From: Sulfurimonadaceae bacterium
GTDB taxonomy: Bacteria; Campylobacterota; Campylobacteria; Campylobacterales; Sulfurimonadaceae
Assembly: GCA_041571435.1 (NCBI GenBank)
Contig: JBFFUI010000008.1
Location: 1-64,000 of the forward strand
Direction of reading: 5' to 3'
DNA: 64,000 bases
This document shows, piece by piece, positions 15,662-30,641 of the stretch. Position numbers and translations under genes: made by a program. Every line of letters begins with the position of its first letter. Positions within the stretch are counted from its first letter, which is position 1. The notes beneath the pieces were generated by a model. That model saw nothing but the letters and a program-made list of their open reading frames with translations, was not told where the DNA came from and searched no databases.

Positions 15662-16996
15662 TTAGTTGGCCGCGTTTCCGGCCACGTTGAGCGGATCCCA
15701 TGTTTTGGAGATCGGCGGGGCATAGCAAAAGTCCATCATCCCAAGCTCTTCCGTCGTCATCTTCGCTTTTATCGCCATAGCAATGACATCGATACGGAGT
15801 GCCGCACCTTTTTTGCCCAGGATCTCGCCCCCTACTATCACTCTGCTCTCTGCTTCATAGACAAGTTTGATGTAGATGTCTTGTTGATTCTTGTAGAACG
15901 CTGACTGATCTTTATCTTTGACAAAAACAGTCTTGCATGCCAGCCCCATCTTGGTGGCATCACTCTCATTGATCCCGGTAATCGCTGCTTCCAAATCCAT
16001 CACTTTAACACAGGCTGAGCCCAATGAGCCTGGGTACCATGCATGACCGCCGGCCATGTTCTCTCCCGCAACACGTCCGAGTTTGTTCGCACCGGTAGCC
16101 AGAGGAATGTAGACATCATCTTTTTTGACAATATGCGGTACAGTGGCACAATCGCCTGCGGCATAGACATCTTTTAGAGTTGTCTCGGCTCTCCCGTTAA
16201 TGACAATAGCACCGTTTTCCAAGGTCTTGATACCCGTGTTTAAGACAAACTCCGTATTGGGTTTAAAGCCGGTAGCAATAACGACCAAGTCTGTTTCATA
16301 ATTGTTTTTATCCGTCACGACACGCTGCACTGTTGTCTCACCTTCAAAACCTTTTACACCTTCATTCAAGACCAGTTCAACGTCGTGTCCAAGCAACTCT
16401 TCATGCATCATATCCGTTATGCGTTCATCAAATATACGGTTGAAGACACGCGGCCCCCTTTGGATCAAACGCACCTTTTTACCCAGGTTTTTCATCGCTT
16501 CGACCACTTCGATCCCGATAAAACCGCCGCCGATAATAGTGACATCTTTTACCGTATCACTCTGTACAAGCGCTTTGAGTCTTTTACCGTCATCCAACTT
16601 GGTCAAGGTAAAAATATTTTCCAATCCTATATTATCAAAAGGCGGTTTAATGACATTTGCCCCTGTTGCGATCATCAATTTGTCGTAGTGGTGTGTCGTC
16701 ACATTTGAACTGCGCAAATCTTTGACCTGCACCGTTTTATCGTCTGCTGATACCGAGAGGACCTGATGTGCTGTCTGTACATCGATACCCGCATCACGCA
16801 TCTGTTCAACCGATCGCGCCAACATGGTATGTTCATCCTGAAAAAAATCACCTACATAATAGGGAAGACCGCAAGCCCCGAAAGAGACGATCTCACCCAT
16901 CTCATAGACTGTTATCTCAGCATCTTTTGCAAATCGTCTCGCTTTTGCCGCTGCACTCATCCCTGCGGCGATACCGCCAACAATAATAATTTTCAT
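15662..16996 (-). CDS. cdr: CoA-disulfide reductase / NADH oxidase family flavoprotein (no rhodanese domain)
   Basis: GGIAAGMSAA FAD motif, redox Cys in SFGACGLPY, GGGFIG NADH motif, YIPLAT and C-terminal YAPP. Confidence 0.85.
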   Translation of the reverse strand: MKIIIVGGIAAGMSAAAKARRFAKDAEITVYEMGEIVSFGACGLPYYVGDFFQDEHTMLARSVEQMRDAGIDVQTAHQVLSVSADDKTVQVKDLRSSNVTTHHYDKLMIATGANVIKPPFDNIGLENIFTLTKLDDGKRLKALVQSDTVKDVTIIGGGFIGIEVVEAMKNLGKKVRLIQRGPRVFNRIFDERITDMMHEELLGHDVELVLNEGVKGFEGETTVQRVVTDKNNYETDLVVIATGFKPNTEFVLNTGIKTLENGAIVINGRAETTLKDVYAAGDCATVPHIVKKDDVYIPLATGANKLGRVAGENMAGGHAWYPGSLGSACVKVMDLEAAITGINESDATKMGLACKTVFVKDKDQSAFYKNQQDIYIKLVYEAESRVIVGGEILGKKGAALRIDVIAMAIKAKMTTEELGMMDFCYAPPISKTWDPLNVAGNAAN

Positions 16997-17438: not shown

Positions 17439-17584
17439 AAACGTAATCTTAGCAAAAAAAAGTGCATTTGGCTAGAGGTAAAGGAAAATTTGTGCTAATT
17501 TTTGCTAATGATGCCAGAAATATGAGACTCAGACATCTATAATTACTTCTAATAATAGCTGTTTGTCTGAAAAAAGGATGATGA

Positions 17585-18097
17585 TCAGATCATCATCGGA
17601 TCAAAAGTCGGCTCGATCTCTTCGTAGTCTGCAACAATCTGGTCAAACATTTTCTGTGTCTTTTTGGCCTTCGCAATCTGGGCGTCAAAAATCTTTCTCG
17701 ATGACGGGAACGCGTCAGCTAGTTCCGTATAGATCATTATACGCCCGTTAAGGTGCTTGTTGAATTCTGTAAATGCTTTACTGAGAAATTCACGTTTTGT
17801 CGTATGACGGAAAAGCGCTTTGAGCATCTTGTCGCGCTCTTTAATAGGGATCGACTCGTCGATGCCGTCAGCAACACGTTTAAGATCGATACGTGAAAGA
17901 TAGACACCGCTCTGACTCGGTGCAAGCAGCTTCTCCTGCAGTTCATCTACAAAAGCCGGATACGGCTCTTCATCGACTGCATCACCACGGTCCGGGTTCT
18001 CTTCAGTGTCACAGCTTCCGTCTTCACTGATCTCACATTTGTCGCGTACAAACTTGTCAAATTCTGCTCTTAGTTCGTCCATGTTGCCATTGATCAT
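17585..18097 (-). CDS. Hypothetical acidic helical protein, last gene of the psr-like operon
   Basis: AAGGA RBS, 12-nt gap to the upstream gene, and coding-like composition. Confidence 0.75.
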   Translation of the reverse strand: MINGNMDELRAEFDKFVRDKCEISEDGSCDTEENPDRGDAVDEEPYPAFVDELQEKLLAPSQSGVYLSRIDLKRVADGIDESIPIKERDKMLKALFRHTTKREFLSKAFTEFNKHLNGRIMIYTELADAFPSSRKIFDAQIAKAKKTQKMFDQIVADYEEIEPTFDPMMI

Positions 18098-18109
18098 TAT
18101 TATTTCCTT

Positions 18110-18868
18110 CTAATTATTTTTTATAAAATTGTAAGCGTTTTTTGTCAAACGCTCCAGTTGTGCCTCATAGCCTATATATTCGACATCGAGTTCATTCGCA
18201 CGCTGACGAAGTGCAGAGATCTGCTTCGCATTTTTAAGGTCAATACAAATTGGCGGCAGCTTTGCCACCTTTGCCAATGAGCTGATCGTCGAGGCGTCAA
18301 TAACAGCGTCATAGTCACTCAGATCGCATGCATCTGTCAAACGGTTGATATCGATCGATACACTCTCATTCATGGCCATCAATGACTCGACATATTCATG
18401 ATAATAGAAAAGAGTATGCTCTCTCTGTGTCAATGCTATCGCCTTTGCCAATGCCCCTGCACCGATTACAGCGATCTTTCTCGCCTGTTTTTCATCAAGC
18501 AGTTCAAAAAGAGATTGTATCGCAATAAAATCGCCGATAAGCTTTTTATCTTTCACTAAAACCACATCACATGCGCCGCACGCTTTGGAAAGTTCACTTT
18601 GAATGTCTACGATCTCAGCGGCATCTTTTTGATACTCGGCGCCGATGAAAGCACCGCTTAACTGAGCATCACGCATGTTGGAGAGTGTAAAGTAGAAATC
18701 GTCTTCGCGAATGTTCATCGGGATCATCATCGCATCATCACCCGCAGCTTTGAAAAGACGGTTTACACTCACGGACAGACGGTTTTGCTGCGCCTCTTCG
18801 GCAATAAAACCGAACAGTTTGGTCTGACGGCCGATCTGGTTGGATTCGTTCATACTGTCAACACTCAT
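18110..18868 (-). CDS. Shikimate dehydrogenase (AroE)-fold protein with degenerate catalytic motifs
   Basis: TKLFGFI start and GAGALAKAI Rossmann motif are kept. HSxSP, NVTxPxK, GAVNT and NTD are replaced. AGGAG RBS abuts the ferredoxin stop. Confidence 0.75.
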   Translation of the reverse strand: MSVDSMNESNQIGRQTKLFGFIAEEAQQNRLSVSVNRLFKAAGDDAMMIPMNIREDDFYFTLSNMRDAQLSGAFIGAEYQKDAAEIVDIQSELSKACGACDVVLVKDKKLIGDFIAIQSLFELLDEKQARKIAVIGAGALAKAIALTQREHTLFYYHEYVESLMAMNESVSIDINRLTDACDLSDYDAVIDASTISSLAKVAKLPPICIDLKNAKQISALRQRANELDVEYIGYEAQLERLTKNAYNFIKNN

Positions 18869-18877
18869 ACCATCTCC

Positions 18878-19987
18878 TTACATATCATCTGAAATACCCC
18901 AAAGCTCTCGTGCCTCTTCTTCTTCACATTGGCACTGATAACACATCTTTGCACCGGCCAATGAGGTAAACAGACGTCCACACTCATTGCAGTTCTTTAC
19001 ATCAAACGTGACAAGATTCTGGACTTGCGGCTCAAAAAACTCTTTTATATTATACGCGTTGGAACGTGTCAGAGCATCCGTTTCGCACACATCATGGCAG
19101 ACATGGCACTTAATGCATAAAAATGGATCGAAATCGATCTTTGAATTACGGACGTTCGAGGTCAACGCACCCGTCGGACAGACACGGTAACACATCTGAC
19201 ATGCCGTACACTTTTCCAAGTCAAAAAGTTTTTGTGACGTAAAACTCAGTTCTGTCGCATCAACCACGTGATAGGTCGACGGTTTCTCTGCACGTTTCAG
19301 AGCGGTAAAGAGCAGTTTACGTCTGTCCGGAATACCTTTCTGTTTTAACTGTGCGATCTTATCGTTTGTGATGGTATGTTCAACCAGCTCGTCGGTCGCT
19401 ATCTCAACCTCACGGTCAAACTTCTGTTTTGCCGTTGCCGCATTTTTGAGTGTAAAAGCTCTGAAAAAGTCACGTCGTTCGCCTTCAGGTACGTCAGTCA
19501 TCTCCTCAGGCGTATACGCTCTGTTTTCCAGTCTGACAGCAGCACTGCTCTCCATAGCCTCGAGCACATAATTCGCCTCTTCGGCTGTTGATTCGATCTG
19601 CCCTCTGCAGGTGTGGGCGATATCACAGTTCTCACAATGTCCCATATCAAATGTTACGCCATTTTTTAACGAAGCCAGTGCGATGACATGCTCAACATTC
19701 AAAACAGAGATACACGGAACATTTTTGCGGCATGAGATCAGCGACTCTTCGCTTGAAGCGAATTCGAAAAAGAACTCTGTCAAACTGAAGTCATCTAGCG
19801 TTAATGCTTCGGAGGGACAGACACCTGCACATCCGCCGCAAGCAACGCATTTAGAAAAGTTTATCGCTGGTAGCCCGTCATTTATAACAATAGCATTGGT
19901 CGGACAGATGCGCTCACATTTATCACACTCGCTGAACTTGGCGAGAGAACGGATACAGGCAGACGTATTAAGAGCGATCGCTGCCAT
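18878..19987 (-). CDS. Polyferredoxin (multiple 4Fe-4S) accessory protein, PsrE-like
   Basis: Four ferredoxin-type Cys motifs (e.g. CVACGGCAGVCP, CTACQMCYRVCP, CIKCHVCHDVC), extra central Cys residues and a C-terminal CxxC...CxxC. Confidence 0.85.
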   Translation of the reverse strand: MAAIALNTSACIRSLAKFSECDKCERICPTNAIVINDGLPAINFSKCVACGGCAGVCPSEALTLDDFSLTEFFFEFASSEESLISCRKNVPCISVLNVEHVIALASLKNGVTFDMGHCENCDIAHTCRGQIESTAEEANYVLEAMESSAAVRLENRAYTPEEMTDVPEGERRDFFRAFTLKNAATAKQKFDREVEIATDELVEHTITNDKIAQLKQKGIPDRRKLLFTALKRAEKPSTYHVVDATELSFTSQKLFDLEKCTACQMCYRVCPTGALTSNVRNSKIDFDPFLCIKCHVCHDVCETDALTRSNAYNIKEFFEPQVQNLVTFDVKNCNECGRLFTSLAGAKMCYQCQCEEEEARELWGISDDM

Positions 19988-20616
19988 TATTCCGTAGCGA
20001 GGCTTTCATTGATTAGTTCGTTGTCGGAAAGCATAAACTCAAGCGCCATCTCAGCAGCATCATAATAGAGCGGTGTACGCGCTTCATACTTCATATTGAT
20101 CAGGTAGAGTGGTGCCCACTGCAGGAGATGTTTGTTCAAGAACTCGCTTTGCGCTTGCAAAAGGTGTTCAACCGCATTGGTATCACCCTCTTCCATCGCT
20201 TTCATCTGCGCTTCGCACAGATGATGCATAAACTCAAGTTCAACACCGATGTGGTCACTTGAAACAACACGTGCGATCTCATAGTCGACGATAAAGTCGT
20301 AGGCGCTGTACATGTCTGTTACCGGGTTAGCCCCGCCTGTTTCGATCTTTTGGTCGTCACGCGTGTAAAATGTCTCATAAGGGACAAGGTGCAGGACTGA
20401 AAGGTTCACAAAGTCTGGATTCAAATGTTCGCCCAAGAGCGCACTGTTTTGAAGAGTACTTAGTGGTTCCCACTTCTTTAGGTTTGGAAAAAACTCTAAG
20501 ATCTGATCGTCATTTTTGATCGTCGTCAGCATCTCGTCATCGAGCTCTTGCATAAGTATTCTTGAAAGTAGTGCATATATATTACTGCGTGCTTGTGTCT
20601 GTTCCATGCGTATCAA
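19987..20616 (-). CDS. TorD/DmsD-family redox-enzyme maturation chaperone, PsrD-like
   Basis: PYETFY, DHIGVELEFM and FLNKHLLQW motifs. Alternative start at ATG 20607. Confidence 0.9.
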   Translation of the reverse strand: MIRMEQTQARSNIYALLSRILMQELDDEMLTTIKNDDQILEFFPNLKKWEPLSTLQNSALLGEHLNPDFVNLSVLHLVPYETFYTRDDQKIETGGANPVTDMYSAYDFIVDYEIARVVSSDHIGVELEFMHHLCEAQMKAMEEGDTNAVEHLLQAQSEFLNKHLLQWAPLYLINMKYEARTPLYYDAAEMALEFMLSDNELINESLATE

Positions 20617-20648
20617 TATTCCTGAAAAAAATTATGGGGGATTTTAAC

Positions 20649-20671
20649 CAAGTAGGCTGAAAGCCTACTTG
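20649..20671. other. Perfect intra-operon hairpin between the catalytic subunit and the chaperone genes
   Basis: CAAGTAGGCT-GAA-AGCCTACTTG. On the sense (minus) strand the U-run precedes the stem rather than following it. Confidence 0.7.
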
Positions 20672-20681
20672 AAAAAAGAAG

Positions 20682-23600
20682 TTAGTCTTTGATCTCAACC
20701 GCGTAGGCTTTCTCTGAAAGAGCAACCCAAGGACGCTTGATATGACGCGGACGACGCCATTTGTTCGCTGTATTAAGAGGACGAGTAAGCTCATCTCTCC
20801 ACGCCTGGTATGTTTTGAAGTTATTTTCATAGTTGACATAGATGTCACCGATGTTGTCACCCGGTTGAGCAGGTTCCAAAATAACTTTCTGGTGCCAACA
20901 GTGCATACCCGAGATCGGATCCGGGTGCGTCGGTGCCACAGCATTTTGCCATGAACCAGAAAGACCGTCCCACCAGATGTTGTCACTGTCTTTGTTATAG
21001 GCAGCAAAACGCTTAGTATGGAAAGGTTTAATGCCTTCTACATAACGCATAAGACCTTTTTTACCGTCCATGACCATCTCGGCAGTCGGAACACCGAAGC
21101 TGTTCATACCTGCAGTACCGTCGTAATCTTCGATCATGATCTCTTGACCGATGCGACCTGCAGCTGCAGGGCTGTCTGCCATAAACTTAGGATCGTTCAT
21201 GTTACGCGGTACCGGCTGACCGTCAACTTTACCGTCTGTTACACCGTTAGGAATCGTTACAGAGTTTTTAAGTTTCCAGCGTCCACCATGGTGTGAACAT
21301 GCCAGTGTACCAGGAAGAACACCTTCAGTCGGTACGGCCATCGCTACGAAGTAACCGCTTTCAAGACCTGAAACCGTGTCAACGATACGGACACGGATCG
21401 CATCACCACGCTTGAAGCCTTGACGCTTCGCATCCGGAGTTGAGATCCAGATCGGGTCATGGTTTTGCGAGATCTCCATAAGGTGCTTAGAGTTCGCAGA
21501 ACGCGTGTGAATGTTGTATGGAAGACGGAATACTGTGTTCAATGCATACGAGTTCTCTTCAGTCATATACATATGGTTAACGTGAGAGACAATGTGAACC
21601 ATCTCCTCTTTCTCTTTCTCGTTACGAGGGTAGAAAGGAATCGCATACTCCGGCCATTTCCACTCGTCAGATGCGAACCACTCTGAGAAGAAGTCAAGTT
21701 TTTTGTCAAGTGTCGCAAAACCTTCCATCTTAACACCGTCGATCTCGATACCAATAGGTTTTTTACCATCATCGTATTTCCATGCGTCGCTGCCATGTGC
21801 TTTTGTTGTCATGACACCCGTACGCTTATCGATCTCGACATGATGTTTATTATATTTGTGACCGTGTGCGATGTAGTTTTCACCATCTTCTTTGATCACA
21901 CGCTCTTGTGCCGAATAGATATTGTTCTCTTCCATCCATGCACCGTGATCTCTCATGTACTCGTATACTGGGTACTCAGAGTCTTTGTAACGCGGGTCTG
22001 AAGTCGCTGTAGACTTCAGGTTCGGCAAGTTGTCACCGAACGCAGCATCGTACCATTCAGAGATCGTAACCGGTTTGCCTGGGTTCTTTTTAGACTCCCA
22101 CATTTTCTTGATACCAAGAGAGCCATCCGGATCGATGTAGTTAACACCCATGTCGAACCAGAACTCATTCTCTTCCCAAACTTCACCAAGACCAGCTTTG
22201 ATGTGTGCTTCAAGTGTTGCACGGTTAGGGTTTTTAGGTTTCCAACCTGCTTTCTCAAGCGCAACACGCATAACCGGCTGACGGAATGATGTCCAACGTG
22301 CCGGCATCGTCGCTTCAGAGTGCTGATCGTGACGCTCGCCGGCAAGACCAACTGGAAGTACGTAATCAACATGCCAGTTTGTTTCAGACCATACAGGAGA
22401 AAGGTTAAAGGTAAGTTCCATTTTGGACTCGTCTTTAAGCACTTCCAACCAACGGAAGCCGTCTGGGTTGATCCATACCGGGTTGTACATACGTGGGATC
22501 CAGACAGCCAGTTTCTGTGGAACGTTGAGTCCTTTTTTGATCCATTTGTCCTGCCACTCAGTATCGGTTAGAAGGTGTGGCAGAAGGTATGACATCTCAT
22601 ACGTAGAGAGAGGCCATTCAGGCGGCCAAGAAAGTTCATTCCAGACATCGACTTTAGGAACGTTTGCACCGCCCTTACCTTGACCGACAGTCGCAGCACC
22701 ACCCTTACCGGCAACAGAAATAACGTGCCAGTGGTGGAAGAATGTACCACCTTTAGGACCGATCGCACCGCGTAGACCAAGTGCAAGGTAACCTGTACGA
22801 CCTGAGACCCAACCACCACGGTTACCCGCAGCTGTTGCACGCCAGAAGTATGACGCGATAGAGGTGTCAGCCCAGAGGAACATGTCGTATAGTTTCTCTA
22901 GTTTGTACGCCGGTACATGCGACTCTTTAACTGCATAGTCAAGTGTATATGGTGCATAAATCTCTTTTAGCATTTCCATGTACGACTCAAAACTGCCATC
23001 TTTCGGAAGTGCAGAGATATACCCTTTTTTAACCATGAAGTTCAGATAATCTTTGTTATCCATCATCACTTCCCAGTTAAACCACTTCTTGACAAATGCT
23101 TTATTGACCTTGTCTTCTTGAAGCATACGCTGTACAAGATAGAGGTAGATTGTCGGTTCTGTACCTGGCCATGCTGCGATCCAAAGGTCTGCCATACCGG
23201 CAGAGTTAGACATACGCGGATCCATAACAACAAGTTTTGCACCTTTTTTACGTGCGTCAGCAATGTGACCTGCAGCCTGCTGGAAGTAGTGACCCGCATC
23301 GGCTGCGTGTGACGAGTTAAGGAAAACAAGTTTCGCGTTTGCCCAGTCCGGAGACGTACGGTCATCATTTGCCCACTGGATAGTCGGCGTACGACCACCT
23401 GAAGAACAGATGTTAGTGTGCGAGTTGAATGCATCCGTGTTCAGTGTTTCCCAGAATTTTCCGGTGAAACCGTTCTCGTTCGGACGACCGACGTGGAACA
23501 TAACTGATTTTTTAGAAAGCTCATCCCCAACACGTAGAGTGTCACCCATCTTCTTACCGATGGTTGTCATCGCTTCATCCCAAGTCGTACGGATCCATTT

Positions 23601-24101
23601 ACCTTCACCGCGCTTAGAGCCCGGAGCACGTTTGATCGGGAATGCTAGACGATCCGGATCATACATTTGAGACTGTGTCGCATAACCTTTAGCACAGTTA
23701 CGGCCACGAGAACCCGGGTGAAGCGGGTTACCCATATATTTTTTAACGGTAAAGGTCTTCTTATCGATCCATGCTGTCAGACCACAAGAGGCCTCACAGT
23801 TTGAACAGGCTGTCGGAACGATCGCGAAATCGTTGACATAGATACCATCTGGGTTCTCTTCGCTCTGTACACCGTGACGGCCGATACCACCACGTTTCCA
23901 GTCTTGGCCATCAAGCTCTTTAAAGTCTTCCCACTGATCCAACGGCGGATAGAATGATAGTGAATCAGGCGTGTTCGTAAATTTGCTTTCACTGACTGAT
24001 TCTGCAATGGCGTCAGTTGTGAAAACGCCCTTTGCAATTGCAGCGCCGGCAACAGTAAATGCCGCGCCTTTTAAAAATGTTCTTCTACTTTCTAAATACA
24101 T
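20682..24101 (-). CDS. psrA: Tat-exported Mo/W-bisPGD oxidoreductase catalytic subunit, polysulfide/tetrathionate reductase clade (PsrA/TtrA-like)
   Basis: Twin-arginine signal SRRTFLK, FS0 motif CSNCEASC...C, candidate Cys ligand in SHTNICSSG, and a C-terminal molydop-binding domain. The substrate is inferred, not shown. Confidence 0.8.
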   Translation of the reverse strand: MYLESRRTFLKGAAFTVAGAAIAKGVFTTDAIAESVSESKFTNTPDSLSFYPPLDQWEDFKELDGQDWKRGGIGRHGVQSEENPDGIYVNDFAIVPTACSNCEASCGLTAWIDKKTFTVKKYMGNPLHPGSRGRNCAKGYATQSQMYDPDRLAFPIKRAPGSKRGEGKWIRTTWDEAMTTIGKKMGDTLRVGDELSKKSVMFHVGRPNENGFTGKFWETLNTDAFNSHTNICSSGGRTPTIQWANDDRTSPDWANAKLVFLNSSHAADAGHYFQQAAGHIADARKKGAKLVVMDPRMSNSAGMADLWIAAWPGTEPTIYLYLVQRMLQEDKVNKAFVKKWFNWEVMMDNKDYLNFMVKKGYISALPKDGSFESYMEMLKEIYAPYTLDYAVKESHVPAYKLEKLYDMFLWADTSIASYFWRATAAGNRGGWVSGRTGYLALGLRGAIGPKGGTFFHHWHVISVAGKGGAATVGQGKGGANVPKVDVWNELSWPPEWPLSTYEMSYLLPHLLTDTEWQDKWIKKGLNVPQKLAVWIPRMYNPVWINPDGFRWLEVLKDESKMELTFNLSPVWSETNWHVDYVLPVGLAGERHDQHSEATMPARWTSFRQPVMRVALEKAGWKPKNPNRATLEAHIKAGLGEVWEENEFWFDMGVNYIDPDGSLGIKKMWESKKNPGKPVTISEWYDAAFGDNLPNLKSTATSDPRYKDSEYPVYEYMRDHGAWMEENNIYSAQERVIKEDGENYIAHGHKYNKHHVEIDKRTGVMTTKAHGSDAWKYDDGKKPIGIEIDGVKMEGFATLDKKLDFFSEWFASDEWKWPEYAIPFYPRNEKEKEEMVHIVSHVNHMYMTEENSYALNTVFRLPYNIHTRSANSKHLMEISQNHDPIWISTPDAKRQGFKRGDAIRVRIVDTVSGLESGYFVAMAVPTEGVLPGTLACSHHGGRWKLKNSVTIPNGVTDGKVDGQPVPRNMNDPKFMADSPAAAGRIGQEIMIEDYDGTAGMNSFGVPTAEMVMDGKKGLMRYVEGIKPFHTKRFAAYNKDSDNIWWDGLSGSWQNAVAPTHPDPISGMHCWHQKVILEPAQPGDNIGDIYVNYENNFKTYQAWRDELTRPLNTANKWRRPRHIKRPWVALSEKAYAVEIKD

Positions 24102-24113
24102 TGATATCCTCTC

Positions 24114-25022
24114 TTAACTCATAGGTAGTAGTTGTGGAATCATCAACCATACATGTTTGACAATCCATAGACCAGCTAACGCAAGGATAGCTGCTAATTT
24201 AAGAATGTTTTGGTTTTTGTTGACAATACTTAAGACCACTAGTACAAATGGAATGATGTAAGCAGTAACTTGACCGATCCAGAACATTGCCTGATACTCA
24301 CCACCATGTTTGATGTACTCAAGTACAGCTGCAACCTCTTCAGCTTTCATCGGTCCGAAAACCAACTCCGCCATATACATAATGAATGCCGCAAGTGCAC
24401 TGAACCCGAGGATGATGCTCAGGTCACGTTTCGCTTCTGATGACAGCTTGTTCATGAACGTGTCCATCAAAAGAACCGTAGCTGAACCCGAAAGCGTCGC
24501 TGCAAGTACCATCTGGGCCGACTCTGTCGGCATCTGCCATAGTTCACGTGCCGTTGCCTGTGCCATAAGACCTGCCGTATAAAGTGTTACAGGAATTGCA
24601 AGTACAGTTACCCATAGCAGTGTCTTGTCAAAGGCTGCATCGTCTTTTTTGATGAACGAAAGATAGGCAAGCAGGAACAATAGAGCGACAAACGCCGTCG
24701 CCATCCAAGCACCCACCGTAATCGCCGATGTAACATGCGGATAGAAGAAAATGTGCCACATTCTAAACGGCTGATGAAGGTCCGCCAGAGTGAACAACAG
24801 GAACAGGTGAATAAATACAATTGATACGACTGTAATCGGGAAACGGTAGCCGGCTGATTCATTCGGGTACTTTTTCAACAGGTAGAACAGCATAAAGATA
24901 ACACCTGTACCAATACTTTTAGCCCACATATTCATCGTAACCAGCCAAGGCCATACAATACCAGGAAGACCAACGTCCAATGTCACAACTGCATTAGTTG
25001 CTGCGATAGTTTCGTGTACCAT
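24114..25022 (-). CDS. psrC: NrfD/PsrC-family membrane anchor (quinol-interacting)
   Basis: About 8 TM helices, DLHQPFR.W, S.IT.GAW and RELW motifs. Confidence 0.9.
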   Translation of the reverse strand: MVHETIAATNAVVTLDVGLPGIVWPWLVTMNMWAKSIGTGVIFMLFYLLKKYPNESAGYRFPITVVSIVFIHLFLLFTLADLHQPFRMWHIFFYPHVTSAITVGAWMATAFVALLFLLAYLSFIKKDDAAFDKTLLWVTVLAIPVTLYTAGLMAQATARELWQMPTESAQMVLAATLSGSATVLLMDTFMNKLSSEAKRDLSIILGFSALAAFIMYMAELVFGPMKAEEVAAVLEYIKHGGEYQAMFWIGQVTAYIIPFVLVVLSIVNKNQNILKLAAILALAGLWIVKHVWLMIPQLLPMS

Positions 25023-25660
25023 TAGTGACCTCCTAGCGGCATTTTTGAAGTAATCTTGTTAAACAACGAGTGTCCTTCTACCCTGTGTGACGCAAGTGGG
25101 TTCAATGTAACGTTTCCGCCACCGACATAGTAGTGGTGCGGGTTCGTACCTTTTTCAGGTTTACGAACCTGAACATCACCTTGGTGCTGCATGATATACT
25201 TGGAGATGTTTGAAGTAGGGTCTTCAATATCACCGAAGATATTCGCTTCGACCGGACATGCGACAACACATGCAGGCATCATCGAAGAGGCAATACGGTG
25301 TGCACAGTATGTACATTTGTCGGCCGTCTGTGTTTCCGGATCGATATAGATCGCGCCATATGGACAAGCCATAACACAACCCGCACAACCGATACAACGT
25401 TCTTTGTCAATATTGACAATACCGTTTTCGATATAGTGAAGTGCACTGACCGGACAAATACGTTCACACGGTGCATTTTCACAGTGGTTACAACGAAGTG
25501 GTGTAAATGTACGTTTCGTTTCCGGGAACGTACCTACATCAACATACTTAACACGAAGACGCCATGTAGAAAGAGGAACTTCATTCTCAACCTTACATGC
25601 GATCTCACATCCCTTACAACCCATACACAGGTGTAAGTCAACGAGGAAACCTAATTTCAT
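25022..25660 (-). CDS. psrB: Four-cluster Fe-S subunit (NrfC/PsrB/TtrB type), no Tat signal
   Basis: CMGCKGCEIAC, CNHCENAPCERICP, CIGCAGCVMACP, KCTYC...PACVVACP and GTNP; AAGGAG RBS. Confidence 0.9.
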   Translation of the reverse strand: MKLGFLVDLHLCMGCKGCEIACKVENEVPLSTWRLRVKYVDVGTFPETKRTFTPLRCNHCENAPCERICPVSALHYIENGIVNIDKERCIGCAGCVMACPYGAIYIDPETQTADKCTYCAHRIASSMMPACVVACPVEANIFGDIEDPTSNISKYIMQHQGDVQVRKPEKGTNPHHYYVGGGNVTLNPLASHRVEGHSLFNKITSKMPLGGH

Positions 25661-25692
25661 CCATTCTCCTTGAGCCAGATATTAAAAGTAAT

Positions 25693-25709
25693 AGCAATCA
25701 TTATGCCAA
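25693..25709 (-). promoter_or_regulatory. Sigma54 (RpoN) -24/-12 promoter for the psr-like operon
   Basis: The minus strand reads TTGGCATAATGATTGCT: exact GG-N10-GC spacing, close to YTGGCAC-N5-TTGCW. Predicted +1 near 25682, about 22 nt before the ATG. Confidence 0.7.
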
Positions 25710-25810
25710 CTAATGCACGTCAAAAGACATGCTTATAATTGGCACTATGGGGCTACACGCTACGTTGATACTACCTGACAAAAGGTTAACTGAAACTAAA
25801 AAATTAGTGA

Positions 25811-25828
25811 TGAATTGTAAAAAATTCA
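25811..25828. promoter_or_regulatory. Candidate upstream activating sequence (inverted repeat)
   Basis: TGAATT-N6-AATTCA, about 130-145 bp upstream of the predicted sigma54 start. Confidence 0.35.
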
Positions 25829-25963: not shown

Positions 25964-26455
25964 CTACTCCTCCTCATCGCCCTCTTCTTCGATATAGTCG
26001 TCAGGATTTGCTAGACAGTCAAGACCGTCCGCATGTTTTTCAACGCCAGCACCGTATTCGTATGTCAGCTCGCCGCCATCTTTGCCTTGTTGCAATATCA
26101 TAGCTGATGCGCCTAACAGTAAGACAACTGCCAATGCCTCAAGCCAGAACTTCTTCATCTGGCAACCTGCAAAATTAACCACTGCGATGACACCCATCGC
26201 GATGGCAAGGTAAAGACCAAGTGTCTTATGTTCAACCAGCTCTTCTTGGCCTTCTGTACTCAAGAGAGGATAGACGTCCGGTCCAACCTGTGAACCGGTA
26301 TACCATGCCGCGATCACACCAAGTGCCGCTAAGACCAGAAAACGTGCAGAGATCTTTGACATCCCTTCACTGCGTGTGATCATATAGCTTAGACCAAGAA
26401 CGAGGGCCACTAGGGGAAGAACGATTGCAAAATGCGCTGCTGCTGGATGTAACAT
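25964..26455 (-). CDS. DUF2231-family membrane protein (putative heme-binding)
   Basis: LHPAAAHF.I.L start, four TM helices, conserved EH and GGEL.Y..G. Start at ATG 26455 after AGGAG. Confidence 0.8.
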   Translation of the reverse strand: MLHPAAAHFAIVLPLVALVLGLSYMITRSEGMSKISARFLVLAALGVIAAWYTGSQVGPDVYPLLSTEGQEELVEHKTLGLYLAIAMGVIAVVNFAGCQMKKFWLEALAVVLLLGASAMILQQGKDGGELTYEYGAGVEKHADGLDCLANPDDYIEEEGDEEE

Positions 26456-26554
26456 AGTACATACTCCTGTATTTGTATTTGAGAGTATCATACACAAAAC
26501 TTATAGCAATGTAAATAGAAATCGTTCAAAAGTAAAAGAGTTAGAAGATTTTGT

Positions 26555-27996: not shown

Positions 27997-29214
27997 CTAT
28001 TTTGACTCAACGTTGTTGGCTTTTTGCATCGCTTTGAACGCCTTTAATGCATGTCTGTCAAGCCGAAATTTGTATCGCCAGGTGATCAGCCTCTTTAATA
28101 CATACCCTAAAAACCCGGAGACTTTGATGGTATCAAAAAGCACGACGGCTGCATTATAACCGCCCAAGGCGACCATCATGCCTTGCAACCCAAAAGATAT
28201 ATGTTGCGGACGTTCACCTTTCAACTGCGCTTTGATATTTTGGACCACGACACCTGCCGACTGTTCTGCAGCATTTGCCGTAGCCGGAATGACATGACCT
28301 CCCGCATCGACCAGGGCCGCAACATCCCCGATGGCGTAGACATATTTATGGCAGGTCACCTGCAGCGTCTGATGCACTTCTACTTGCCCCTTCGCATTGA
28401 GCGTACAGCCCAATGACTTGGCCAAGGAGGACGCTTTGACACCGCCTGCAAAGATCATAAAGTCGAAATCAACACGGCCACCGTTGTTGAGGATGACCGC
28501 ACTCTCTTTCACTTCGGCAATACGCGTGTTGTAAAGGACCTTCACGTCAAGCGCTTCCAAACGTTGCTTCGCTTTTTGCTGAAGATAGGGGTTCGTACCG
28601 TCAAGAACTTTATCCCGAGAGGCAATAAGATAGATCTGAATACCCTCACACATTATTCGGTTGTCTTGAATAAACGCTTTGGCGTAGTTACCCATCTCAG
28701 CAGCGATCTCGACACCGCTCAATCCCGCCCCGCCGATGACGACATTAAAAGCTCTGCTGAACGGGTCATCTTCACTCTGCATACGTGCATACAGCTGCTT
28801 CTCAAACTGCTGTTTAAATTCAAACGCGCGTTTCAGGGTCTTGACCCCATGAGAGTACTCTCTCAGCCCGGGTATCGAAGCCGGAAAGTGGGTACGGCTT
28901 CCGGTTGCAAGGACAAGATAGTCAAAGGGTAACGATTCTTCCCCGCATAACACCACTTTTCGATTGAGATCGATCTCTTTTATAATCGCTTTTTTATAAC
29001 TGGCATTTTTATAGTGATCGCACAATGCGACGAGATCGACGGTGACATCCGTCAGTGTGACTTTGTTGGCAACGAGAGCATAGGCTTCGGTCTGAAGATA
29101 GTGATAAGGGTTCTGGTCGATCAGGAGAATTTCAAGCTCTTTGACACTGCTAAGACCCTGCATCGTACGTACCCCACCGTAACCGCCGCCGATAATTATG
29201 AGTTTTTTCTTCAT
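27997..29214 (-). CDS. ndh: Type II NADH dehydrogenase-like FAD oxidoreductase
   Basis: GGGYGG, LATGS, GAGLSGVEIAAE, YAIGD and ATANAAEQ motifs. Start at ATG 29214 (MKKKLIIIGG). Confidence 0.8.
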   Translation of the reverse strand: MKKKLIIIGGGYGGVRTMQGLSSVKELEILLIDQNPYHYLQTEAYALVANKVTLTDVTVDLVALCDHYKNASYKKAIIKEIDLNRKVVLCGEESLPFDYLVLATGSRTHFPASIPGLREYSHGVKTLKRAFEFKQQFEKQLYARMQSEDDPFSRAFNVVIGGAGLSGVEIAAEMGNYAKAFIQDNRIMCEGIQIYLIASRDKVLDGTNPYLQQKAKQRLEALDVKVLYNTRIAEVKESAVILNNGGRVDFDFMIFAGGVKASSLAKSLGCTLNAKGQVEVHQTLQVTCHKYVYAIGDVAALVDAGGHVIPATANAAEQSAGVVVQNIKAQLKGERPQHISFGLQGMMVALGGYNAAVVLFDTIKVSGFLGYVLKRLITWRYKFRLDRHALKAFKAMQKANNVESK

Positions 29215-29396
29215 CTTGGACTGTGCCTCAATAGTATGAAAATTCATAATAACGTATTTTCTGCTGATTTCAAAGTTTCAGAATCGCTAAGTGGTGATTT
29301 ACAGAGATTATTCAGGGAAGGGTAGCGGAGGAAAAGTGTCTATCGAGTCATCCTGGCAGGCATGTTTTACATCTGCCTGCAGGAGAGCTTATAATG

Positions 29397-29886: not shown

Positions 29887-30399
29887 CTATTTTTTTGTTT
29901 TTTTCAAGATCTCTTTGGCGATCGTCTCATAATCTTTGTCGCTGACATCGATGACAAGGTCGGCCACCGCCCGGTATTGCGGTTCGCGTTCATTGTAAAG
30001 CGCCTCTGCTTTGGCGATGTCCTGAAAGAGCGGTCGTTTTTTGAGTTTCTTCTCTGCATTCGGGTGGTCGATAATGCGGTGGTAGATGGTCTGAAACGGT
30101 GCATCAAGTAGTACTATAGTACCGACTTCATGGACCTTTGGAACTTTGAAAAAGCCGCCGCCTGTCGAGATGAGTGTGTTGTCAACACTCTGACGCAACC
30201 ACTGCCCTACACGCGCTTCCAGTGCACGGAAATACGGTTCACCCTCTTCTGCAAAGATCTTCTTGACCTTGCGGTTCTCCATGCTCTCGATGATGTCATC
30301 CGTGTCGATCGCTACCATGCCGCTCTGTCGCACGATCTCCCGTGCTACAGAGCCTTTGCCTACACCCATAAAGCCGATTAATACGATATTGTTTTTCAT
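29887..30399 (-). CDS. aroK: Shikimate kinase
   Basis: GFMGVGKG, DTD, GE.YFR, ISTGGG and RPL motifs. Start at ATG 30399. Confidence 0.95.
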   Translation of the reverse strand: MKNNIVLIGFMGVGKGSVAREIVRQSGMVAIDTDDIIESMENRKVKKIFAEEGEPYFRALEARVGQWLRQSVDNTLISTGGGFFKVPKVHEVGTIVLLDAPFQTIYHRIIDHPNAEKKLKKRPLFQDIAKAEALYNEREPQYRAVADLVIDVSDKDYETIAKEILKKTKK

Positions 30400-30641
30400 G
30401 GGCGTAGTGTAGCAGATAATCAACTATGAAGAGATAAAAAGGTTATCGTCACTACAAAAGAGACGATTATGCAAAGATCACTTTCAGATACATGAGAGCA
30501 GAAGGTGGTGCCAAGACTGCAGCCTACACAATAGCTATCCAACTGTTTTTATCATTTCACCTCCTTTTTTCCATGCTCTTTTATATTATTTTGGATTGTA
30601 GTAAAATAGTAGATGACAACCTCTAGACGAAGGTAAACACT

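Follow-up and report, generated by a model that had tools for sequence, protein, structure and literature searches.

What do two genes of no assigned function do at the end of a molybdoenzyme locus? The question is raised by a stretch of 64,000 nt from a Sulfurimonadaceae bacterium (assembly GCA_041571435.1, contig JBFFUI010000008.1, positions 1 to 64,000; referred to below as the window), in which seven open reading frames (ORFs), all on the minus strand, encode in this order an Fe-S subunit (FeS), an NrfD/PsrC-type membrane anchor, a molybdenum (Mo) catalytic subunit exported by twin-arginine translocation (Tat), a TorD-family chaperone, a polyferredoxin, an AroE-like protein with the fold of shikimate dehydrogenase and an acidic protein of 170 aa. 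An original prediction, made from the sequence alone, regarded these genes as a sulfur-respiration module and proposed that the last two, here genes 6 and 7, act in maturation or in redox coupling. Our analysis indicates that the locus consists of two functional units, FeS-NrfD-Mo (unit 1) and TorD-polyferredoxin-AroE-like-170-aa protein (unit 2). Unit 2 is probably a cytoplasmic maturation cassette, genes 6 and 7 included, for the periplasm-facing, quinol-linked Mo enzyme of unit 1. Membership of genes 6 and 7 in the system is borne out by their co-inheritance with TorD and polyferredoxin, by gene fusions to TorD and by a modelled complex with TorD, and the same three lines of evidence make a dedicated maturation role the best reading of their function.

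The full seven-gene order was found again in 13 loci of other genomes, spread over several genera and families, so the arrangement is not a product of chance. We collected the neighbourhoods around homologues of the 170-aa gene and labelled their ORFs by phmmer with the window proteins. Among 26 loci of other genomes with an operon-type homologue, the TorD, polyferredoxin, AroE-like and 170-aa genes were contiguous and in the same order in 22; three of the remaining four are cut at contig ends (L024, L025 and L064), and one homologue stands apart (L022). Start and stop codons of neighbouring cassette genes overlap in several loci. The cassette lies away from the hisD-FeS-NrfD-Mo genes in locus L017 and in G372, G216, G274, G347 and G248, five genomes that belong to a sister genus. 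The distance is ~1 Mb on the single contig of G372, ~200 kb in G248 and ~14 kb in G347, while in G216 and G274 the two groups are on separate contigs. The cassette is split from the structural genes yet intact, and therefore genes 6 and 7 travel with TorD and not with the structural genes. The survey of gene neighbourhoods thus upholds the association claimed for them, since the cassette keeps its order in most loci and stays together even when it has left the enzyme genes. The break point of the split loci is the gap between the Mo gene and TorD, which in the window holds a hairpin. In locus L015 (L015:7848-11058), ~3.2 kb are inserted between the Mo gene and TorD, at the junction where other genomes split.

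Co-occurrence was judged from a by-eye comparison of genome lists for 401 genomes of the phylum. Of these, 60 have a Mo orthologue (E <= 1e-100), 72 a member of the 170-aa family and 52 the AroE-like gene (E <= 1e-15). The 170-aa family was found in 59 of the 60 Mo-positive genomes, the exception being G088, whose contig breaks off within the polyferredoxin gene (L043), and in all 52 genomes positive for the AroE-like gene. Thirteen genomes have the 170-aa family and lack a Mo orthologue. Three of these (G291, G391 and G292) reflect assembly breaks (L044, L045 and L064), and the other ten, from two other families, carry a short paralogue only.

The 170-aa protein (17585..18097; pI 4.75) lies outside every Pfam and NCBIfam family, and no DNA-binding or signalling domain was found in it by these scans. 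An N-terminal helix, a CX7C pair and an acidic linker precede its conserved helical domain, which lies at about residues 45-160. The AlphaFold model is a helical bundle with a predicted local distance difference test (pLDDT) score of 82.4 and without an informative solved relative. Foldseek gave no match at E <= 1e-3; its rows for PadR-type regulators are weak and non-significant (E 1.3-2.5), and the best VIA-align score (Z 6.6) belongs to generic helical rows. An Atlas search with the protein returned clusters of 'hypothetical protein' only, none of them named, and NCBI records likewise label relatives of the last two genes hypothetical proteins. With a family profile (A1) built from 17 members and run against 1.84 billion proteins, 425 representative clusters passed a threshold of E <= 1e-3 and 122 one of E <= 1e-10. 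Most members are 105-135 aa long, matching the C-terminal helical domain. Residues G64, R88, Y123 and P131 are invariant in A1 and Y66 and D71 nearly so; the CX7C pair is missing from short and fused forms. Sixteen members are longer (195-344 aa) and have the domain at their C-terminus. Twelve of them carry the TorD domain PF02613 N-terminally, 11 at E <= 1e-6, and the other four are without a Pfam hit. Of four metagenome loci with a fusion gene, two (L050 and L052) have flanks long enough to show its neighbours. In both, the gene for the TorD-domain fusion comes after that for a Mo-subunit homologue, which in L050 is full-length and 36% identical, C-terminal extension included. Between these two genes of L050 (L050:30-9107) lie genes for a DUF1641 protein and a pyridine-nucleotide-disulfide oxidoreductase, and an OmpR-type two-component pair follows the fusion gene.

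The short paralogue of Campylobacterota occurs in a different setting, flanked by the genes of an LRV-repeat Fe-S protein and of an Mrp/ApbC-type Fe-S carrier (L030, L031, L046 and L048; partly L047 and L063). This unit is divergent from a type-II dimethyl sulfoxide (DMSO)-reductase cluster with a TorD and a polyferredoxin of its own. The type-II cluster (L030:3019-13714; also L031, L046, L047 and L048), from other Campylobacterota families, encodes a rhodanese, a Tat-exported Mo subunit, an Fe-S protein, an EB_dh-cytochrome c, TorD, polyferredoxin and VWA proteins. Its Mo subunit is 958-1003 aa long and scores 773 bits with TIGR03479, under the cut-off of 985.

A complex of TorD with the 170-aa protein was modelled in three runs from a TorD alignment (A4) and alignment A1. 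The runs scored 0.92, 0.92 and 0.91, against 0.01 for the best control, with a partner pLDDT of at least 75 and at least 69% of contacts shared between runs. Of 80 solved complexes 58 reach the mark applied to such models, as do 2 of 110 mismatched pairs, counts that hold only approximately here since our own alignments were used. On the TorD side, the modelled interface is formed by the C-terminal helices (residues 161-203) together with residues 76-89; on the 170-aa side it comprises residues 55-71 and 119-140 and includes G64, Y66, D71, Y123 and P131. Fold searches with the 170-aa protein returned no related solved structure that the model could have copied. These results suggest that the 170-aa protein most likely represents a widespread, unnamed TorD-partner domain. 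Taken with the linkage data, they point to genes 6 and 7 as, most likely, maturation factors tied to TorD and not enzymes.

The product of gene 6 (18110..18868, 252 aa) was assigned its fold from an AlphaFold model (pLDDT 92) with Foldseek. AroE and 5-ketofructose reductase head the list of matches, with E values from 7e-17 to 1e-14, and template modelling scores to many AroE structures range from 0.63 to 0.78. Sequence scores fall short of the cut-offs, with a Pfam match to Shikimate_dh_N under threshold and 40.9 bits with TIGR00507, for which the cut-off is 200.2. A true aroE lies elsewhere in the window genome (G000:C11:26984-27760; 212 bits against a cut-off of 200). Catalysis by AroE depends on the Lys of the NVTxPxK motif and the Asp of the NTD motif. 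In an alignment with the genome's own AroE, NVTVPHK has become FIGAEYQ and the Asp of NTD is lost; the position of the catalytic Lys is Gln in the window and Arg or Thr in relatives. The Gly-rich loop VIGAGALAKA survives only in the window's genus, and in loci with the second of two Mo-subunit types (type B, described below) the AroE-like protein is reduced to its N-terminal ~130 aa, the Rossmann half being gone. The conserved surface is in the N-terminal half (IPMNIREDDFYF and E78-Y79). The named relatives in a word-based search, all from Campylobacterota, bear the annotation 'hypothetical protein' or 'shikimate 5-dehydrogenase'. On these sequence comparisons, the AroE-like protein is a pseudoenzyme with a shikimate-dehydrogenase fold.

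The two genes that precede it in the cassette belong to better known kinds. TorD (19987..20616; 209 aa as called) is a chaperone of the TorD/DmsD/NarJ family of redox enzyme maturation proteins (REMPs), with 66.8 bits for PF02613 (Nitrate_red_del) against a cut-off of 22.2, and it is the sole TorD homologue in the window genome. The polyferredoxin (18878..19987; 369 aa, Fer4 repeats) has 26 Cys arranged in four ferredoxin-type motifs and further Cys groups, including a C-terminal CxxC...CxxCxC; transmembrane (TM)-like segment and signal peptide are both absent from it. All four products of genes 4-7 are acidic, and none has a TM-like segment.

We propose the following explanation. Unit 1 would encode a haem-less, quinol-linked, periplasm-facing enzyme whose Mo subunit is folded and then exported by Tat. 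The signal-less, four-cluster Fe-S subunit would be carried along with the Mo subunit, and both would dock on the NrfD anchor. By family, the substrate may be an inorganic sulfur compound (polysulfide or S0, thiosulfate or tetrathionate); substrate and direction alike are deduced from relatives. TorD-family chaperones hold the apo-enzyme and its Tat signal until the cofactors have been inserted, and TorD of unit 2 would do so for the Mo subunit. The 170-aa protein would be a co-chaperone that binds the C-terminal helices of TorD through its helical domain, as the model has it and as the gene fusions support. The AroE-fold protein may be a catalytically dead scaffold, its conserved N-terminal half working with the polyferredoxin. 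In what is the most speculative step, polyferredoxin and 170-aa protein might couple Fe-S supply or redox checking to the TorD-held apo-enzyme before export.

Several observations weigh against this explanation. The evidence for the link to Fe-S delivery is gene adjacency. The 170-aa protein folds as a generic helical bundle, from which no hint of its mechanism can be read, and the TorD complex is a model, which supports binding and does not demonstrate it. In G028 the genes are dispersed on three contigs, one with FeS-NrfD-Mo, one with TorD and the AroE-like gene and one with the 170-aa homologue. G278 and G073 keep a remnant pair of polyferredoxin and full-length AroE-like genes on its own (L065:8924-10781 and L066:8514-10639), with TorD, the 170-aa gene and the structural genes not beside it and a complete type-B cluster elsewhere in the genome; these pairs lie ~5 kb from an Mrp/ApbC gene, syntenic with the arrangement in the window. 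Such a pair without the 170-aa gene implies that gene 6 may work independently of gene 7. All 8 genomes of family f17 have the Mo and 170-aa genes, and one of the eight has an AroE-like match (E <= 1e-15), and in L026 the AroE-like match is weak and covers 121 aa only, a pattern which suggests that the AroE-like part is not universally needed.

A more far-reaching version of the same idea is possible, although we hold it with considerable doubt. The helical domain of the 170-aa protein might define an undescribed, multi-phylum class of TorD co-chaperones that couples Fe-S delivery to TorD-held apo-molybdoenzymes, with the AroE-fold protein and the polyferredoxin as adaptors in Campylobacterota. 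The domain occurs in three settings, namely on its own, as a fusion with TorD and next to LRV and Mrp/ApbC proteins. If true, this would supply a missing step in the maturation of complex iron-sulfur molybdoenzymes (CISMs), one that coordinates loading of FS0 and other Fe-S clusters with Mo-cofactor insertion and Tat proofreading. What is new at this locus is the cassette, which joins a candidate family of TorD-binding co-chaperones, unnamed in the libraries searched, to a dead shikimate-dehydrogenase scaffold. Were its role confirmed, heterologous production of such enzymes would require the entire four-gene cassette, and a further partner domain, extending well past Campylobacterota, would be added to what is known of REMPs.

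Four other explanations were weighed against a maturation cassette that includes Fe-S handling. In the one that survives best, the 170-aa and AroE-like proteins are co-chaperones of TorD solely for Tat proofreading or for insertion of the Mo-bis(pyranopterin guanine dinucleotide) (bis-PGD) cofactor, and the polyferredoxin is a separate, NapF-like factor. It draws on the same fusions, linkage and complex model as the explanation that we prefer, and the missing CX7C pair of short and fused forms would mean that metal binding is not a trait of the family. It has to contend with a short paralogue that repeatedly adjoins LRV and Mrp/ApbC genes and with a polyferredoxin gene that comes after TorD in both cluster types, and we consider it unlikely.

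The redox coupling offered in the original prediction fares worse. Genes 5-7 would here form a cytoplasmic module in which NAD(P)H passes electrons to the AroE-like protein and from there to the polyferredoxin, which feeds or drains the membrane enzyme. The Gly-rich loop retained in the window's genus and the 26 Cys of the polyferredoxin would suit such a chain. However, the catalytic Lys and Asp of the AroE-like protein are lost, and in many genera its Rossmann half has degenerated or is missing. To our knowledge, the AroE fold has no flavin site, and without one a hydride would not be split into single electrons. The anchor is free of Cys and of haem-type motifs, so that a transmembrane electron path is not apparent from its sequence; the cassette can sit up to 1 Mb from the enzyme genes, and the 170-aa domain is elsewhere fused to a chaperone. 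Although the sulfur reductase of Acidianus is reported in PMC5317093 to accept NADPH as well, with low activity, the module is very unlikely.

A role of the 170-aa protein in regulating expression of the enzyme and not its assembly, as an anti-activator or sensor partner, is highly improbable. The protein is small, acidic and helical, its Foldseek rows for PadR-type regulators could be read in this sense, and in L050 a two-component pair is found just downstream of the fusion gene. Against this stand the missing DNA-binding or signalling domain, the TorD fusion in 12 of the 16 longer members, the high-confidence modelled TorD interface on invariant residues and the short paralogue that sits with Fe-S biogenesis genes. 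That the last two genes are unrelated downstream neighbours has next to no probability: an annotation link is missing, with NCBI giving 'hypothetical protein', but order and adjacency are conserved across families with start/stop overlaps in several loci, co-occurrence with the enzyme is genome-wide and the TorD fusions exist.

The enzyme that the maturation cassette would serve is of a known kind. Its Mo subunit (20682..24101; 1139 aa), a catalytic subunit of the DMSO-reductase (bis-PGD) type, scores over cut-off with PF04879 (40.4 bits) and PF00384 (49.9 bits) and slightly under it with PF01568 (25.2 bits, cut-off 26.8). A twin-arginine motif, SRRTFLKG, occupies residues 5-12, and an RR motif was present in all 18 Campylobacterota Mo orthologues inspected. 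The FS0 cysteines are at positions 99, 102, 106 and 136. The best solved relative is PsrA of Thermus thermophilus (2vpw_A; E 3.9e-32), to which residues 88-341 of the 1139 align, and Cys232 aligns with the conserved Cys of that protein, which we take to be the protein ligand of Mo. By analogy with Mo ligation in PsrA, the subunit has the Cys ligand expected in the Psr/Phs/Sre/Arr/Ttr superclade. No NCBIfam equivalog reached its cut-off with the Mo subunit, the scores being 123.9 bits for PhsA (NF012032; cut-off 694, residues 94-341 matched), 50 for TtrA (cut-off 1750) and 60 for ArrA (cut-off 1600). Among 14 control genomes, none had TtrA or PhsA over cut-off. The FeS subunit (25022..25660; 212 aa, 16 Cys), without a signal peptide of its own, matches Pfam Fer4_11 with 78 bits, and its best NCBIfam scores are TtrB with 207 bits (cut-off 416) and then ArrB with 174. 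The anchor (24114..25022; 302 aa, 0 Cys) matches Pfam NrfD with 54.9 bits and has at least six TM-like segments by hydropathy scan; the TtrC equivalog gave 26 bits with the window proteins, for a cut-off of 314. A three-subunit CISM enzyme accompanied by a chaperone and a polyferredoxin, as had been predicted, is what these domain calls describe, and Pfam and NCBIfam scans agree with the domain calls first made for all seven proteins. By sequence, the enzyme is classed as a Psr/Sre/Ttr-type CISM that reaches the cut-off of no curated equivalog.

Among the best 120 matches listed, near relatives of the Mo subunit are 77-95% identical and recorded only as 'molybdopterin-dependent oxidoreductase', and those with a name come from Sulfurimonas and Sulfurimonadaceae. 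Two types can be told apart. Type A, to which the window protein belongs, is 1129-1145 aa long, 83-95% identical to it and carries an insert of ~40 aa near residues 953-992; type B is 1094-1110 aa long and 58-68% identical, and the insert is absent. By family, the Mo orthologue is present in 31 of 34 genomes of the window's own and in 8/8, 13/20, 3/4 and 2/2 genomes of four others, and was not found in either of the two largest families (118 and 158 genomes), which are host-associated. The window genome, 100% complete by marker genes, has a single Mo enzyme of this kind and single homologues of TorD, NrfD and genes 5-7. Two further Mo proteins were found in it, a Fdh-alpha/NasC-like protein of 685 aa and one of 580 aa, and NapA-type or other Tat-exported CISMs were not detected there beyond this enzyme. 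It is thus the only TorD-dependent membrane molybdoenzyme of the genome. We predict that it is probably central to the sulfur energy metabolism of Sulfurimonas-type chemolithoautotrophs because it is the sole such enzyme, occurs in nearly every member of the family and did not turn up in the 276 genomes of the two host-associated families. Sulfur respiration by the enzyme is plausible by analogy with its family and with the literature. According to section 3.10 of PMC10045233, four Sulfurovum PsrA proteins are all without a twin-arginine motif; should one of them be this enzyme, the missing motif might stem from a wrongly called start.

By gene content, the nearest described system is SreABCDE of Acidianus ambivalens and Desulfurella amilsii (PMC8551704 and PMC5317093), which includes the Fe-S protein SreD and SreE, a TorD/NarJ-like protein of ~209 aa. 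Both systems have a Mo subunit, an Fe-S subunit, an NrfD-type anchor, an Fe-S protein and a TorD-like chaperone; the comparison is one of gene content and order and not of SreA sequence. Locus tags of the D. amilsii sre genes run B, C, A, D, E, so that the B-C-A order is common to both, whereas the Fe-S protein precedes the chaperone in Sre and TorD comes first in the window. A 2021 review among these sources describes SreD and SreE as proteins of unknown function, and a sixth or seventh gene is not reported in the passages on sre in the two papers, in contrast to the AroE-like and 170-aa genes of the window locus. With PsrABC/PhsABC (T. thermophilus, 2vpw; Wolinella succinogenes) the window enzyme shares the FS0 motif, the aligned Cys and a haem-less NrfD anchor, and it differs in a Mo subunit that is ~370 aa longer and in gene order (B-C-A as opposed to A-B-C).

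The genes of Salmonella TtrBCA also run B-C-A, and this order, the best match of the FeS subunit to TtrB and the large catalytic subunit are points of likeness. With the TtrA and TtrB scores given above, the window enzyme is nonetheless not an equivalog. Papers on Sulfurimonas and Sulfurovum name related clusters psr (PMC10045233, PMC9122950 and PMC12029903), and one of these clusters may be the window locus. A further candidate is psrA1B1CDE of Sulfurimonas sp. NW10, from the same bacterial family, which is cited in PMC10045233 as periplasmic and Psr-like with extra genes D and E. Among accessory factors, the window TorD is a member of the TorD/DmsD/NarJ family and the polyferredoxin would resemble NapF, of the NapF/NapD factors, in role. 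NapF is a cytoplasmic poly-Fe-S protein held to aid the maturation of a Tat-exported molybdoenzyme. We know of no counterpart of the 170-aa domain or of the AroE-fold pseudoenzyme among described accessory factors. In the REMP survey PMC4464133, the words 'fusion' and 'fused' have no occurrence and a partner domain is not described, and the 10 papers listed, out of 306 matched by a full-text literature search, do not describe a REMP partner, polyferredoxin or shikimate-dehydrogenase-like factor of this kind.

How the seven genes are transcribed bears on the two units. ORF calls agree with the seven minus-strand genes and the spacings first reported, which are, from FeS to the 170-aa gene, a 1-nt overlap, gaps of 12 and 65 nt, a 1-nt overlap and gaps of 9 and 12 nt. 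Two corrections to the bounds are needed. Position 25828, given as the end of the locus, falls in the non-coding leader, the first gene beginning at 25660, and alignment with five other loci places the TorD start at the ATG at 20607 and not at the TTG at 20616, which leaves a protein of 206 aa and widens the gap between Mo gene and TorD to 74 nt. The hairpin predicted in this gap was confirmed by folding. It lies just after the Mo stop codon (20650..20670, minus strand), with a stem of 8-10 bp and without a U-tract. A 91-nt slice folds with a 10-bp stem at -17.2 kcal/mol (z = -2.2), 5 of 200 shuffles folding equally well, and L013 and L019 keep the stem, with base changes on both arms. A -10-like box, TTAAAAT preceded by G (20641..20647, minus strand), lies ~33 nt before the TorD ATG, and in 6 of 6 aligned sequences, from three fused and three split loci, the G.TA.AATC columns are invariant before an invariant ATG. 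We read this box as a candidate internal promoter of unit 2; a generic sigma-70 scan did not call it, which counts against that assignment. The claim of a single seven-gene operon accordingly stands as to one locus and gives way as to one transcription unit, for the internal box and the split loci indicate that there are probably two. A terminator-like hairpin with a T-run (17577..17597, minus strand) overlaps the stop codon of the 170-aa gene.

Upstream of unit 1, a sigma-54-like -24/-12 match with one mismatch (TGGCATAATGATTGC, a GG-N10-GC element; 25694..25708, minus strand) sits 34 nt before the first ATG of the FeS gene, and we judge it non-functional. The motif was seen again in only 1 of 19 other loci. 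A search for rpoN in the complete window genome found none, whereas the same search was positive in four control genomes that have it; nor was a convincing Sigma54_activat domain found in the window genome, the best score (27 bits) belonging to a generic AAA+ protein. We therefore reject the enhancer-dependent control that had been proposed for the locus.

Among neighbouring genes, one located 303 nt upstream of the FeS gene (25964..26497, minus strand) encodes a DUF2231 membrane protein whose tail is acidic; found upstream in 6 of the 19 loci that have the FeS gene, it was rejected as a member of the system. The conserved upstream neighbour is hisD, in 14 of 19 related loci. Two Pyr_redox_2 genes flank the window locus, one for a CoA-disulfide reductase (15662-16996) and one SQR/SelD-N-like (27997-29247). 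A shikimate kinase gene lies 4 kb upstream (29887-30423, minus strand), and its nearness to the gene of the AroE-fold pseudoenzyme looks coincidental.

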